Positions 34,751 through 57,177 of a stretch of DNA of 64,000 nt are shown piece by piece. Origin of the DNA: a virus. A model generated the notes under the pieces. It saw only the letters and a program-made list of their open reading frames with translations, had not been told where the DNA came from and ran no database searches. The position numbers were made by a program, and so were the translations under genes. The stretch covers positions 15,072 to 79,071 of IMG/VR virus record IMGVR_UViG_3300036781_000230. The stretch is one strand, 5' to 3'. Position 1 is the first letter of the stretch, and each line of letters begins with the position of its first letter.

Positions 34751-35560
34751 TTAGAGTTCAGTTTCTGAGTTATTTCCGTGGTCGAAAGAAGCGTCTCCCT
34801 CTTCTTCACCAGTCGTATCAACCTTGATGTTAGCTGCCTTAAGGGCTTCAAAATTGCTCTTCATCGATTCAAAGAGTTCTGGCTCTACGAAGCCACCTGG
34901 AATGACTTTCTTTTCAAACCACTCATTGTCACCCGATCGCATATCTACAACTGTGACTTTCCAGTACTTTGCGTACATCGGAAGCCGAGTCATGCGAACC
35001 CCAGACAAGAGTTGTTTAGATAGTTTAAGCCCAGTTGACTTATAGCTAATAGCTATTGGACTGTTTTCCTTTGGGATGAATGCCATGAAGTTATGATACA
35101 AAGTACATAGAGGGGCATCGTTTCCATGCTCATCATCTTTCTCGCCATTTCCCCAGGTGCTAAACTTGCAAATACTGCAACCATCTGGAGAAATTCGTCC
35201 TCCATCAATTCCATTTGCAGAGATACAGTCAATTCCACCACCATCGTCGATGTCGATGTACTTGATTCTGTTTTTGAAGAAAAACAAGGAAACGATGGTA
35301 ATCTCTTTTCCATAGATTTCTTGAGTCACCGTATTGAATAAATCTCCCTCATTGAGGCCCTCAATATAGGCAGCGTGACTCTTACGCTTCTGTGGAGAAA
35401 GAGCTTGACACAAGCCAAGACGAGGGATAAGAATATCTCCCTGCTCTACATTTTCCATGCCTTCTTGATGACCAATTTGAGAACGAAGCCACTCAGGAAT
35501 TTCTTCCTTCGTAGACAGGGCCGAATTACCTGCTGGTATGATATCTTTATTCTTGCTCAA
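34751..35560 (-). CDS. Putative ssDNA-binding/annealing protein
   Basis: IPRL.L.QALSP motif, acidic C-terminal tail, replication context. Confidence 0.6.
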   Translation of the reverse strand: MSKNKDIIPAGNSALSTKEEIPEWLRSQIGHQEGMENVEQGDILIPRLGLCQALSPQKRKSHAAYIEGLNEGDLFNTVTQEIYGKEITIVSLFFFKNRIKYIDIDDGGGIDCISANGIDGGRISPDGCSICKFSTWGNGEKDDEHGNDAPLCTLYHNFMAFIPKENSPIAISYKSTGLKLSKQLLSGVRMTRLPMYAKYWKVTVVDMRSGDNEWFEKKVIPGGFVEPELFESMKSNFEALKAANIKVDTTGEEEGDASFDHGNNSETEL

Positions 35561-45796: not shown

Positions 45797-46216
45797 CTAA
45801 ACATACACCACTCCAAAGGTAGGAAGATCAAACTCATATTTCCAGTTGTCTGAGTCTTCATCACATGTCATTACAAAATTAAGACGCTTGCTCTTGCCGT
45901 AAATATCATGAAGTTGTTCTTCGCAGTGTCTGATAAGATTACGAAGCTTCGCTACTGGTACTCCTTTCGGTACCCTCACCATCGCTATACGAGGAAGATT
46001 TTCTGGCTCTTGCTCACCAAAATCAACTTTGTCTTCGGCACCTTCACCTGGTATAACAAAGAGTAGCTGCAGCTTAATTTTCTTCTTAGTTAACTGAGTA
46101 GGGTGAATCCCCTCAAAATCTCGATCGACGTATCCTGTTGAAATTGACTCAGTGCGTAGAGGAAATGAGCTAGTGATGTGACTCATATTCTCGATTACGA
46201 TGTTGCTACCCAACAT
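45797..46216 (-). CDS. Hypothetical early protein
   Basis: GGAG RBS; colinear. Confidence 0.55.
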   Translation of the reverse strand: MLGSNIVIENMSHITSSFPLRTESISTGYVDRDFEGIHPTQLTKKKIKLQLLFVIPGEGAEDKVDFGEQEPENLPRIAMVRVPKGVPVAKLRNLIRHCEEQLHDIYGKSKRLNFVMTCDEDSDNWKYEFDLPTFGVVYV

Positions 46217-46430
46217 TTGGTTCTCCCTTTGATTTACTTACAAATAAGTAAGTCCGTTCATCTAACTTTAAACTATACAAATGAAGACCATTCTCAACTT
46301 CATCTTTAATTATCGTAGCGCCAGAAGCTAAGAGCAATCTTTTGAACTGCTCCGCTCTCCATGATTTACCGTATCTTTCTCCTCTAGCAATAGGCGTGAA
46401 CCGTCTCCTGTCAACACCATCCCACGTCAT
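46206..46430 (-). CDS. Small protein with terminase Walker-A-like peptide
   Basis: IARGERYGKS; coupled to 46427-46738. Confidence 0.45.
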   Translation of the reverse strand: MTWDGVDRRRFTPIARGERYGKSWRAEQFKRLLLASGATIIKDEVENGLHLYSLKLDERTYLFVSKSKGEPNVG

Positions 46431-46738
46431 TGTAACTTTAACTTAGACTGAATAAATCTTCGAACATTGTGATTGACGTTTTGTAAACCTATTGCTCTAT
46501 CGAATCTCTGTCCTTGTAATTTTTCGAGTGATTCGTCTCCATTGTGTGCCCACACGATAAATGTGTTACCGCTAAAGTCTGTTAATTTTGACTGACTATG
46601 GTTATAACTATACTTATGTTGATCGAAAGTCTCAAAGTGCTCATTTAACCACTCACGCTTAAACATCTCAGCTTGAAAACAAACTACACATAATAGTTTT
46701 TTCTCTTTAAATGTTATTTCGAGGATATCTTTGAGCAT
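46427..46738 (-). CDS. Truncated terminase large-subunit ATPase-domain homologue lacking Walker B
   Basis: Colinear similarity to own TerL segment KRVICG...YSYN...LGMTIGIALCDE. Confidence 0.6.
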   Translation of the reverse strand: MLKDILEITFKEKKLLCVVCFQAEMFKREWLNEHFETFDQHKYSYNHSQSKLTDFSGNTFIVWAHNGDESLEKLQGQRFDRAIGLQNVNHNVRRFIQSKLKLQ

Positions 46739-47076
46739 TAGAACTCCTGATGGTGCAGGTTAGACCGAACAGTAATAGTTTTAGAAGCAGAGCTTTCCAT
46801 CATAGTCTTAGAAGATAAATCGTTAGCAAATTGCATGATACCTATCGCTGAGTGTACGTGCCCTAATTCTTCGCATAGATTCATGCGGTTAGAGCGACTA
46901 TTTTCTTTATCTGGATTTTTACTCCCGTACCCATGCCTCAAAATCTTACCGATTGCGTGGATCACCTCGCCACACTCTTCAGAGAGCCAAGCAAGACGCT
47001 CAGCTTCAGCAGCTGATAAACCATTTGTAAAGGGCTTAACTTTCTTCTTACTTTTCTTATCGATTTTCTTCGACAC
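46738..47076 (-). CDS. MazG-like nucleotide pyrophosphohydrolase
   Basis: LSEECGEVIHAIGKILRHG...EELGHV motif. Confidence 0.75.
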   Translation of the reverse strand: MSKKIDKKSKKKVKPFTNGLSAAEAERLAWLSEECGEVIHAIGKILRHGYGSKNPDKENSRSNRMNLCEELGHVHSAIGIMQFANDLSSKTMMESSASKTITVRSNLHHQEF

Positions 47077-47088
47077 TATGATTCTCCT

Positions 47089-47592
47089 TTAAATTGAATC
47101 TGGATTCGGTATTCCACGGCTCACCCGAATCTCTCGAGCCATCTTTTGAATAGTTTTAAGATTTGGTACCAGTAAGCCTGAGTGAATAAGTTGGATAGTT
47201 GAGTCGTCAAGAGGTACGTCGACCTTGGCTTCAATTAGTTCACTGAGTATAGTATTCGAGTTTACACTCGAACACGATTCACTTGCGTGGCCTTGTACAT
47301 GTCTCTTAAAAAACAGATAAAGTTCTTTGGTGTTCTCGACTTCTGGAAACGGCACAAGAACTATCTGATTACAACCAGGACAAGCATATGTCGGTTGTAA
47401 GTAATTTGGTTTACGTGTCTGAGGATTTTCTACTGTTTCGATGTTATGAAGTCCATTAACTCTCAGATTACTGTAATACCAGACTAGTGTGAACACGTCA
47501 TGAAATCCAAGTTCCTGGATCGCGACATGCTCAGGCCATGCGTCGTCTCCCATCGGTTTAAGTGCCATTAGTAGCCTACTTTCAAGTGCCAT
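47089..47592 (-). CDS. Hypothetical protein with Zn-binding motif
   Basis: CPGC...H...H; C-terminus similar to 54581-54748. Confidence 0.55.
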   Translation of the reverse strand: MALESRLLMALKPMGDDAWPEHVAIQELGFHDVFTLVWYYSNLRVNGLHNIETVENPQTRKPNYLQPTYACPGCNQIVLVPFPEVENTKELYLFFKRHVQGHASESCSSVNSNTILSELIEAKVDVPLDDSTIQLIHSGLLVPNLKTIQKMAREIRVSRGIPNPDSI

Positions 47593-49989: not shown

Positions 49990-50835
49990 TCAATTATATA
50001 CCATCTCAATTAAGTTGTAAACAAAATAATGAGCAGCTGTCACACTTAATTTCGTGTAAGAACTACTCATTTTCGATAAACTGTAAAATTGATTATAGGA
50101 GAATATTCAAAGTTTTAGCAGTTTCTTCTTTAGAATCACAAATAATAACAGAATCATCTAAAGGATCATAGATAGTGAAAAATCCATCTGAGTCAAAACG
50201 AACATTAAATCTTCCAATTTCAACTTCATTATTTTCTTCATTTTCTACTGGTTTATTTTCTAAGTTTGTGAGAATTTCTAAAATGTTCATGTTCAATCTC
50301 CTATATCTATAGTATCAAGAATAGAGAATATGTACACAGAAAAGTGAGCAGCCCTATCACTTTTGTTACTCGTCCCAGGATGAGCGAGGCAACTATTCAA
50401 TGTAGTAGCTATTGCCCATTTTCATGAGTTTCGTAGCGGTTGACCCGTGTCACGTAACCCAATTTTCATTAGTGAAAAGATGATAAAAGTAGTGTATCAA
50501 TATAGAGACGCGCACGGGCGCGTATATCATACAATCATTAAGTTGTACACAACTATTTTACTTTATTTTATGATACCCTAATATCATGTAAAAAGTCTAA
50601 AAACTGCTCATTATTCTGTTTACAACTGAAAATGTGATGATATATAGTTATCCTAGATTGATGCTACACAGTAACACACAAGGAGAAACAACAATGTATC
50701 TATTCCTTCTTCCTTCGATGATAGCAACTCTACTCATCAGTTTCATTCAACTTCGTGATCAGTTTCACTCTGCAAAATAATTCAAAAACTGCTCATTATT
50801 TTGTTTACAACTTCAGAATAACAATGTACTATAGA
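49990..50835. promoter_or_regulatory. Cluster of five early promoters (three leftward, two rightward)
   Basis: Repeated (CTGCTCATTATT)TTGT(T/G)TACAACT motif near 50010, 50330, 50540 (-) and 50610, 50795 (+). Confidence 0.7.
50093..50296 (-). CDS. Small acidic early protein
   Basis: AGGAG RBS, directly after a promoter. Confidence 0.6.
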   Translation of the reverse strand: MNMNILEILTNLENKPVENEENNEVEIGRFNVRFDSDGFFTIYDPLDDSVIICDSKEETAKTLNILL

Positions 50836-52841: not shown

Positions 52842-53032
52842 TATTTACCTATGCTTTTAAAGTATTTTACCATCAAGTCCATCGTACCAAAGTTTATTAT
52901 ATACGGTATAGCATCTGATTCATGATTAACGTTCGTATTCATCGAACTCTTAACTGCTAAAGGTCTACAATCGCAGCTAGGTTCTGGTTTTCCACACTTA
53001 CCACAAAGGGTCACAGGCATGGCTGTCCGCAC
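52841..53032 (-). CDS. Small Zn-binding protein
   Basis: CGKCG...CDC. Confidence 0.5.
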   Translation of the reverse strand: MRTAMPVTLCGKCGKPEPSCDCRPLAVKSSMNTNVNHESDAIPYIINFGTMDLMVKYFKSIGK

Positions 53033-53481
53033 TTTCCACTAAAACCAGGAGGTACCGGGGCACCACACAAAGAACACGTATTATAATCTTTCGCGTCCCA
53101 TTCTCCGAGTAGATATTTATCGTAGAAGTTAGTATTGTGAGGAAATTCTACGATTTCTGGAAGAGCGTAAGAACGCATAGCAGATTCAAGATCTTTCTTA
53201 GTGATATTTGGATTATCTTTTACTAGCATTACCTCATCTGGTATAAAGTATGGCTTATCTCGTTCTTTAAACCAAGCTCTGACTGCCTTAAGACTAGTTT
53301 CATTAGTAAGCCACTTATCTTTACGCCAACCATTAAAGTAAATAGTCCAATACTTACCTACACGTTTGGCTACGTATGTCGTGCCCCATCCCATTCTAAA
53401 CTCAAATCGGCGACTCGTCATCTGGACGACGGTGCTGACTGGACGAGGCGGTATAACTAGATTTACATTAACTATTCTCAT
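53011..53481 (-). CDS. Protein carrying terminase-like peptides plus Zn ribbon
   Basis: DNPNI and FYDKYLLGEW vs TerL DNPNI and YYQRYILGLW. Confidence 0.55.
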   Translation of the reverse strand: MRIVNVNLVIPPRPVSTVVQMTSRRFEFRMGWGTTYVAKRVGKYWTIYFNGWRKDKWLTNETSLKAVRAWFKERDKPYFIPDEVMLVKDNPNITKKDLESAMRSYALPEIVEFPHNTNFYDKYLLGEWDAKDYNTCSLCGAPVPPGFSGKCGQPCL

Positions 53482-55908: not shown

Positions 55909-57177
55909 GTGCCAATCTTTAAGCCATTCGGACAAAAAGCCCACGATTTCGTTAAGAGGCATCCGAGTCAGGATAAGAAGTACACTCTTCTAGAGGGTAG
56001 TGTTCGTTCTTCAAAGACGTTTGCTGTAGATGCTAAACTTATACTTCAACTTTGTAACTACAAAGTTAATGGAAAGAGAGTCATTTGCGGAGCTACTAAA
56101 CAAACCGTCTATAAGAACATGCTTCTGGATATATTCCAAGTAGTTGGTAAGAAAAACTACTCTTACAATCGAGCTTCTGGTGAACTCTGGTTATTCGGGG
56201 TTCAGTGGTTCATCATCGGAGCTCGAGACGAAGCAAGCTACAAGAACATTCTTGGTATGACCATTGGTATCGCGCTCTGCGATGAGTGGACTGAATTTCC
56301 AAGAAGTTTTACAATGCAGTTGTTTCTTCGACTTTCTCCCCCGGGCTCGAGGCTATATGCTACCACAAACCCTGGGACACCTCAGCACTATCTTTTCACT
56401 GAAGTCATTCATAACGAGAACTTTGCTCCTGATCTTGAAGTTATTCACTTCACACTTGAAGATAATCCCAATATTGAACCCGATCAAAAGAGACAGATTA
56501 TCGCCTCTCAGAAAGGTGTTTACTATCAGCGATATATTTTAGGGTTGTGGGTGGTGGCTGAAGGAGCCATTTACAAGGATGCGTGGTCTGATGATCTACT
56601 GTACAATGATCAAACTAGACCCGAAGGATTGTATGGTTCTGGTGGGTACAATAAGCATATTATAGCTATTGACCACGGGACGCACAATCCCTGTACGTTC
56701 TTAGAGTTCTTCGATGATGGTGAAGTAGCGTGGATGGATCGAGAGTATTACTGGGATTCAGTTAAAGAGATGAGGCAGAAAACTAATTCTGAATACGCCG
56801 ACGATTTAGAAGAGTTTATTGCCAGCTCTAGAGTCATAGGAGTTAACAATCCTATGATTGTAGTTGATCCTGCTGCAGCCGGTTTTAAAATTGAGCTAGT
56901 AAAACGCGGCTTATATGTAGTTGATGCGAATAATGAAGTTCTCGAAGGTATTCACCGAACCTCTGAAGTAATGGCTTGTAAAGCATTGAGGGTTCATGAA
57001 GATTGCGCGAATGAGCGTCGAGAATGTGGTCTATATTCCTGGGATAAAAAAGCCGGGGAAAAGGGCAATGAGCAACCACTCAAAGTTAATGACCATACTC
57101 AAGACGCTAAAAGATATGGAGTAATGGAACTGTTCCCAGAATGGAGAATGGTATCTACTCTTCAAAGAGCGGCTTAA
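55909..57177 (+). CDS. terL: Terminase large subunit (PBSX-like)
   Basis: EGSVRSSKT, CDE, TTNP, DNP, IDHG, VDPAA, NDHTQDAKRY motifs. Confidence 0.95.
   Translation: MPIFKPFGQKAHDFVKRHPSQDKKYTLLEGSVRSSKTFAVDAKLILQLCNYKVNGKRVICGATKQTVYKNMLLDIFQVVGKKNYSYNRASGELWLFGVQWFIIGARDEASYKNILGMTIGIALCDEWTEFPRSFTMQLFLRLSPPGSRLYATTNPGTPQHYLFTEVIHNENFAPDLEVIHFTLEDNPNIEPDQKRQIIASQKGVYYQRYILGLWVVAEGAIYKDAWSDDLLYNDQTRPEGLYGSGGYNKHIIAIDHGTHNPCTFLEFFDDGEVAWMDREYYWDSVKEMRQKTNSEYADDLEEFIASSRVIGVNNPMIVVDPAAAGFKIELVKRGLYVVDANNEVLEGIHRTSEVMACKALRVHEDCANERRECGLYSWDKKAGEKGNEQPLKVNDHTQDAKRYGVMELFPEWRMVSTLQRAA

Follow-up and report, generated by a model that had tools for sequence, protein, structure and literature searches.

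The early region of an uncultured soil phage contains a 103-residue ORF, here called ORF A, which raises the question of whether a phage may encode, besides its own terminase large subunit (TerL), a small stand-alone protein shaped like part of the TerL ATPase domain. A first-pass annotation had described ORF A as a catalytically dead mini-terminase and had proposed for it the role of a decoy for terminase sensors or of a dominant-negative inhibitor of rival packaging motors. We examined this proposal in a window of 64,000 nucleotides from one IMG/VR virus record, in which ORF A, its downstream neighbour ORF B and the peptides quoted from them were confirmed from the sequence, on the minus strand and at the positions originally assigned (Table 1). 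As the reference for comparison with ORF A we used the phage's own TerL, which has its P-loop at residues 30-37, its Walker B Asp-Glu at D125-E126 and, in R141, the counterpart of the trans-arginine finger R158 of D6E TerL, its nearest solved relative (phmmer 1e-57).

Table 1. Coordinates of the features discussed (the first row in positions of the virus record, all others in positions of the window)
Feature	Position	Strand	Remarks
Window	15072-79071		79-kb IMG/VR virus record, rated 100% complete
ORF B, 74 aa	46206..46430	-	Downstream of ORF A
ORF A, 103 aa	46427..46738	-	Predicted P-loop-less look-alike of the TerL ATPase core
MazG-like NTP pyrophosphohydrolase	46738..47076	-	Upstream of ORF A, same operon
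Shine-Dalgarno-like GGAG	46744..46747	-	5 nt upstream of the ORF A ATG; read from the sequence
156-aa early ORF	53011..53481	-	Stretch like TerL residues about 168-216, with lid-subdomain motifs
Phage's own TerL, 422 aa, D6E/PBSX type	55909..57177	+	Pfam Terminase_6N and Terminase_3

ORF A is a real gene of a rapidly diverging family

ORF A sits in a minus-strand block of closely packed genes which runs leftward from ~54 kb to ~20 kb and codes for a DNA polymerase A, a UvrD-type helicase, an AEP primase, an SNF2 helicase, ThyA, ThyX and an exonuclease. The local gene order is a 167-residue ORF, the MazG-like gene, ORF A, ORF B and a 139-residue ORF; the MazG-like gene matched phrog_4856 with an E-value of 2.8e-14, and its Pfam MazG match (E 2.4e-4, 21.7 bits) fell just under the cut-off of 22. 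The start of ORF A overlaps the stop of the MazG-like gene (TAATG), and ORF A is in turn joined to ORF B via an ATGA overlap. Since it is preceded by a Shine-Dalgarno-like GGAG, overlaps both of its neighbours and has homologues with an open frame, we conclude that ORF A is a real gene. The only sequencing run containing the window's DNA is a soil metagenome; the runs listed as containing the stretch include no RNA run, and no joint across ORF A was found among the contigs of the probable source DNA run.

Using phmmer exhaustively on 1.84 billion representative proteins, we found a sole full-length homologue of ORF A, P0002 (102 residues, 51% identity, E 1.9e-25), which shows neither an internal stop nor an indel relative to ORF A. 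A shorter protein of 61 residues, P0012, consists of about the first 23 residues of the 167-residue ORF fused in frame to about the last 38 of ORF A, and therefore represents a natural deletion taking out MazG and two thirds of ORF A; the deletion corresponds to 46427-47592 of the window. The list returned by phmmer also held long bacterial repeat proteins (E 1e-9 to 1e-4), which we judged to be repeat-motif noise and not kin of ORF A. These matches fell on ORF A residues 47-85 (46483-46600, SGNTFIVWA...GQRFDRA), several to each repeat protein, with a repeat unit of roughly D-[AS]-x-G-[DN]-[AF]-x-V-V-W-x-S-(5-12 residues)-G-Q-R-[FY], and they look like a short-motif coincidence amplified by repeats. 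A word-indexed homologue search with ORF A returned the query alone, and scanning viral_contigs and metagenome_contigs for loci related to ORF A, P0002 or ORF B yielded no relatives.

More distant relatives of ORF A were detected when we searched 20 related phage records, gathered via their TerL. Four of the 20 carry such a relative, 89-155 residues long and just 20-26% identical to ORF A, whereas for TerL the identity in these phages is 73-80%. A profile of ORF A and P0002 nevertheless matched a profile of the four distant members with an E-value of 2.9e-10, and F21, L74, G76 and G84 are invariant across the family. From these distant relatives, and from the absence of the family in five of the seven related records with a completeness of 90% or more, we conclude that the accessory family to which ORF A belongs is genuine, rapidly diverging and dispensable.

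Sequence similarity between ORF A and TerL is borderline

BLASTP of ORF A against the phage's own TerL gave one HSP of 32 residues (35-66 to 76-107, 10/32 identical, pairwise E 0.004). In agreement with the alignment originally drawn between the two proteins, hhalign against an 18-member TerL alignment placed ORF A residues 11-103 on TerL residues 54-143 in a constant register, with P between 0.003 and 0.023, and its score of 22.8 was higher than that of any of 300 column shuffles (12.8 ± 2.3, maximum 20.5). When single sequences were compared by hhalign, TerL came fifth among the 131 ORFs of the window in similarity to ORF A. The four distant members alone gave no significant match to TerL (E 0.45), their best alignment lying on the same diagonal as that of ORF A. 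Pfam and PHROGs returned no family at E <= 1 for ORF A or its five relatives; the family HMM found no terminase among PDB sequences, D6E TerL being missed at E <= 10; and for ORF A no TerL-like protein was listed at E <= 0.001 in the phmmer search of 1.84 billion proteins. Profile-level similarity to TerL, which the mini-terminase idea presupposes, was borderline with the ORF A profile, which beats its shuffles, and was seen neither in the Pfam and PHROG collections nor, at significance, with the distant members. We also rejected a further candidate similarity, to the TerLs of Brevibacillus phages, which were the only matches in a tblastn search of phage genomes (E = 3); they fall on TerL residues 175-254 and are not collinear with the structural register described below. 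Since it lies elsewhere on TerL, this match shows that one or more of the weak sequence similarities must be accidental. Taken by itself, the sequence evidence for ORF A as a terminase-like protein is borderline.

The predicted fold of ORF A resembles the middle of the TerL ATPase domain

We modelled ORF A with AF2 from a two-sequence alignment, and one of the five models was confident (pLDDT 82.7; the other four 40-52). A Foldseek search of the PDB with this model gave D6E TerL at all of ranks 1-10, with TMq values of 0.70-0.77, so that the comparison with the terminase ATPase domain suggested along with the first-pass annotation came out in its favour at the level of a predicted structure. 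The model could be superposed on D6E TerL residues 52-162 with all 103 of its residues aligned and an rmsd of 2.5 Å. This best match is well clear of the others and takes in the hairpin between two core strands, although the identity between ORF A and TerL in the structural alignment is as low as 8-12%. The predicted elements are, in order, the post-P-loop helix, beta2, a helix, a beta-hairpin, a strand, a helix, the strand equivalent to that of Walker B and a C-terminal helix. Their order is that of the D6E-type (PBSX family) TerL ATPase (PDB 5OE8/5OEA; Xu et al. 2017, PMC5727402), and the two families share a conserved 'L-x-G' turn ahead of the Walker B strand (ORF A G76, TerL G116).

The ESM Atlas holds its own model of ORF A (pTM 0.56, pLDDT 0.64), and the nearest structures listed for it were all TerL N-terminal clusters, with TM values of 0.70-0.75 over residues 1-103. 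In BFVD, the best matches of the ORF A model were likewise TerLs (TMq up to 0.78, E 6.8e-4), intermixed with several uncharacterised phage proteins of 95-160 residues. All of this evidence depends on predicted models whose underlying alignments are very shallow, and AF2 and the Atlas predictor are not fully independent, since both may read the same weak sequence signal. A prediction of the complex between ORF A and TerL residues 1-240 scored 0.01, below the mark for a verdict either way. BLASTP, hhalign and the structural superposition place ORF A on TerL in one common register. We consider the structural evidence for terminase likeness, predicted as it is, to be much clearer than the sequence evidence, and the TerL-like fold assignment to be probably right.

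A different account of these models would be that ORF A is an orphan fragment of a generic three-layer alpha/beta fold, RecA-like or flavodoxin-like, which does not descend from TerL and resembles it merely through the common fold and through a bias of the predictors toward the most abundant viral protein of that fold. The low structural identity, the lack of an HMM-level match to any terminase family, the silence of the distant members on their own and the failure of TerL to come top among the window's ORFs would all be expected if this were so. A common fold would, however, hardly make one match stand out over all 103 residues, hairpin included, nor draw it, with the whole of the ten best PDB matches, from the subfamily of the phage's own TerL; the agreement in register and a profile score above every shuffle also argue against such a coincidence. 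We regard a generic fragment as unlikely, though it has to be reckoned with, and descent of ORF A from the TerL ATPase domain as the likelier origin.

Several uncharacterised proteins of cultured phages in BFVD, 90-160 residues long, share the predicted ORF A fold with TMq values of 0.40-0.69. Examples are A0A7U3WJV5 of Stenotrophomonas phage Salva (0.56), A0A0K1LMK7 of Caulobacter phage Sansa (0.57), Q52PS0 of Xanthomonas phage Xp15 (0.40) and G3KB18 (0.68). Judged by their models, these proteins are possible further members of a class of terminase look-alikes.

ORF A lacks the catalytic elements of TerL

D6E TerL has R44 and K47 in its P-loop and R158 as its trans-arginine finger (PMC5727402). 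The structural alignment of ORF A begins at D6E residue 52, just past K47, and given these motif positions ORF A would start directly behind the P-loop and run as far as the finger helix. Its fold would thus take in no more of the TerL ATPase domain than its middle, beginning with the post-P-loop helix and ending with the trans-arginine-finger helix. Consistent with this, the pattern [AG]x4GK[ST] occurs nowhere in the 103 residues. The position of the Walker B Asp-Glu is occupied by L85-Q86, followed by N87, and DE is missing at this place from all six family members; the loss of the Walker B DE that had been noticed at the outset is therefore real, and it is accompanied by the complete absence of Walker A. 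A degenerate P-loop, sought in the N-terminal extensions of the longer members G003 and G004, was unsupported (hhalign E 0.55). At or near the finger position ORF A has a lysine and not an arginine, K101 being opposite TerL R141 in the hhalign alignment and K99 lying near D6E residue 158 in the structural range, and the residue is basic in most family members. An RNase H-like nuclease domain is also wanting, since ORF A is only 103 residues long and nothing like a nuclease fold is seen in ORF B, the next gene downstream.

With no Walker A, no Walker B DE, no nuclease domain and no family HMM match, ORF A falls outside the large terminase ATPases. Because the P-loop (R44/K47 in D6E TerL), the catalytic Asp-Glu, the C-motif strand, the lid and the nuclease domain are all missing by comparison with D6E TerL, the sequence and the model show ORF A to be incapable of binding or hydrolysing ATP in the TerL manner and of cutting DNA. 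As far as the predicted fold goes, the designation 'catalytically dead mini-terminase' is borne out, and more strongly than it was originally put, but it has to be limited to the P-loop-less middle of the TerL ATPase domain.

ORF B is unrelated to the terminase-like protein

The coupled downstream gene had been drawn in as additional, weaker support, for its peptide IARGERYGKS was taken to be Walker-A-like. We found that this peptide does not qualify. It reads as G-x3-GKS or A-x5-GKS, as against the P-loop pattern [AG]-x4-GK[ST], and its glycines vary among ORF B homologues, being replaced in P0018 (YSKS) and shifted in P0020 (ATGHERRGKS). In the model of ORF B, a disordered basic N-terminus (residues 1-22), in which the peptide lies, precedes an alpha-beta3 core, for which a HicA-like or dsRBD-like domain was considered, and no strand stands ahead of the peptide. 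The structural matches of ORF B include no P-loop fold, Pfam and PHROGs gave nothing, and the ESM Atlas provided no model and no usable match.

The distribution of ORF B is likewise its own. Three metagenomic homologues retain 80-88% identity to ORF B in places where ORF A is 51% identical or largely deleted; one of them, P0019 (84% identical), is reported, as is the deletion protein P0012, on a 1,477-bp JGI contig, probably the same one. Conversely, ORF B was not found in the related phages that have ORF A relatives. Because ORF B is kept where ORF A is deleted and is absent alongside the ORF A relatives, we conclude that it is a small protein with an evolutionary history of its own, neither related to ORF A nor belonging to a terminase mimic, and it therefore lends no support to the mini-terminase idea.

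A second strain is present in the source soil run as a 336-bp contig (46072-46407), whose identity to the window over ORF B and the first part of the 139-residue ORF is 83%. None of the ORF B differences shown for this strain falls at a second codon position (of 84 differences in all, 21 were usable). The contigs of both strains stop at about 46378-46407, that is, at the junction of ORF A and ORF B, which fits with ORF A being hypervariable between co-occurring strains.

ORF A resembles the known terminase look-alikes Ksap1, Ksap2 and vs.8

Small phage proteins with a likeness to TerL have recently come to light because they trigger the Avs2 immune sensor: Ksap1, Ksap2 and T4 vs.8, the sole proteins of the type studied by experiment, bind and activate Avs2 instead of silencing it (PMC11564622, PMC13601566). 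Ksap2, KpAvs2-stimulating protein 2, is the 111-residue product Bas60_0220 of Escherichia phage PaulScherrer, for which no significant homology with TerL proteins was reported (Bechon et al. 2024, PMC11564622), and its translation, like ORF A, contains no [AG]x4GK[ST]. Both proteins are small, stand-alone and about 100-110 residues long, and both are encoded in a nucleotide-metabolism setting, Ksap2 between the RNR beta and alpha genes and ORF A beside MazG in a block with ThyA, ThyX and polymerase genes. Each is confined to a narrow taxon, ORF A being demonstrably dispensable in one natural variant, and the top structural match is common to the ORF A model and Ksap2. The two differ in that no sequence relationship is detectable between Ksap2 and the ORF A family (hhalign E 0.36), and in their sources, an E. 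coli myovirus and an uncultured soil phage of a different lineage. Moreover, Ksap2 is an experimentally shown binder and activator of KpAvs2, whereas the likeness of ORF A to it is one of predicted fold, size and context.

At its N-terminus (LVVLPGATPQRRW), Ksap2 (L050:14605-14940, minus strand, phage Bas60) has its best local match to TerL, a non-significant one, at beta2 with its GAT motif (VICGATKQTVYKN), and its best local match to the ORF A family, likewise non-significant, is at the same place. This placement suggests that Ksap2, too, may begin at the strand after the P-loop helix.

T4 vs.8 is, like ORF A, a stand-alone protein resembling the ATPase domain of its own phage's terminase (Evans et al. 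2026, PMC13601566), ORF A differing in that it covers only the segment from after Walker A to the trans-finger helix. Ksap1, from a Dhillonvirus, can be likened to ORF A by description, for it is small (74 residues, fewer than ORF A), dispensable and taxon-restricted; it is sensed by Avs2 in place of or alongside TerL. Its original description reported marginal response-regulator-like structural matches only and no TerL, whereas Evans et al. (PMC13601566) describe in it, as in TerL, a central beta-sheet flanked by helices. ORF A, a small protein standing alone whose predicted structure is like the TerL ATPase domain, agrees in this with the Ksap2/vs.8 type, and going by its model it belongs structurally to this class of look-alikes as a new, sequence-unrelated member. 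It adds to the class an independent predicted example from an unrelated lineage of uncultured soil phages.

A second TerL-like stretch lies in the early region

A 156-residue ORF of the early region matched the TerL profile in hhalign with an E-value of 7.6e-5 and a probability of 62%, its score of 37.0 standing against a shuffle null of 14.4 ± 2.7 (maximum 25.4). The matching motifs, DNPNI ... Y-x-[RK]-Y-[IL]-LG-x-W, belong to the lid region, and the protein ends in a Cys-rich tail. It had no Pfam match and no homologue in the 20 related records. This local match, to another part of TerL, is statistically stronger than that of ORF A, and it makes the presence of TerL-derived material in the early region of the phage more credible.

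ORF A may act by binding

Putting these results together, we lean toward regarding ORF A as a fast-evolving accessory protein with a function in a soil phage whose terminase is of the D6E/PBSX type, and as a non-catalytic look-alike of the TerL ATPase domain. It would have arisen as a diverged, truncated derivative of that domain and would have to work through binding, with a TerL-like surface, as a look-alike of the same kind as Ksap2. The candidate partners are a host terminase sensor, which ORF A might either trigger or block, or the terminase itself. Should such look-alikes recur among phage accessory genes, a common function, namely TerL mimicry directed at sensors or at the motor, could be tested with a defined minimal fold.

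A more specific version of this view would make ORF A a TerL-derived mimic in genetic conflict, possibly together with the 156-residue protein. It might then compete with TerL for the host sensors Avs1-3 and Upx, or dock its finger-helix face, with lysine in place of the trans-arginine, on a terminase ATP site and so poison the ring assembly of a rival phage or satellite. We consider this quite unlikely; if true, it would give the Ksap2/vs.8 class a function for phages.

The roles proposed in the first-pass annotation were those of an immune decoy, which occupies terminase sensors (Avs1-3, Upx) without activating them, and of a dominant-negative protein capping the ATPase ring of a rival's terminase or of the phage's own. 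A predicted TerL-like surface devoid of catalytic ability would suit either role, as would a patchy and fast-evolving distribution, which is typical of conflict genes, and the retained face of the trans-finger helix, where the conserved K101, with K99 beside it, coincides with the finger position or lies no more than two residues from it. Evans et al. (PMC13601566) have moreover envisaged a possible anti-defence role for small TerL-like proteins. The characterised analogues do the opposite of a silent decoy, however, in that Ksap1, Ksap2 and vs.8 activate Avs2. Recognition by Avs2 and Avs3 uses the ATP-bound active site and an interface much larger than 103 residues can offer, the strands that Upx is modelled to bind (beta1 and beta4-6) are mostly missing from ORF A, and the P0012 lineage does without most of the protein. 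Since the known look-alikes trigger the sensor, a silent decoy is disfavoured, while an anti-defence or terminase-directed role is compatible with their behaviour; as proposed, the decoy or dominant-negative inhibitor is improbable. In all, the original observation is partly confirmed and its interpretation partly supported.

That ORF A is a decaying, functionless remnant of an old TerL duplication or capture, left open by chance, is very improbable, for although it is a highly diverged fragment of a domain, deleted in P0012 and missing from most related complete genomes, its frame is open and its length nearly unchanged at 51% identity, its core F21, L74, G76 and G84 and its hydrophobic pattern are kept down to 20% identity in five phage lineages, it has a good Shine-Dalgarno sequence and translational coupling inside an operon, and a compact fold is predicted for it. 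The functional accessory look-alike acting by binding is thus the explanation that we retain as the best.

Other features of the window

Matches to sigma-70-like promoters are clustered at 49990-50830 on the minus strand, the best being TTTACA-17-TATAAT at 50021-49993. The cluster is located upstream of the leftward operon with ORF A and may drive it. Farther along the same strand, 34751-35560 encodes a 269-residue protein that matches Pfam Pam3_Gp34 with an E-value of 1.2e-40; the family takes its name from a cyanophage, and the DNA run is labelled soil metagenome.
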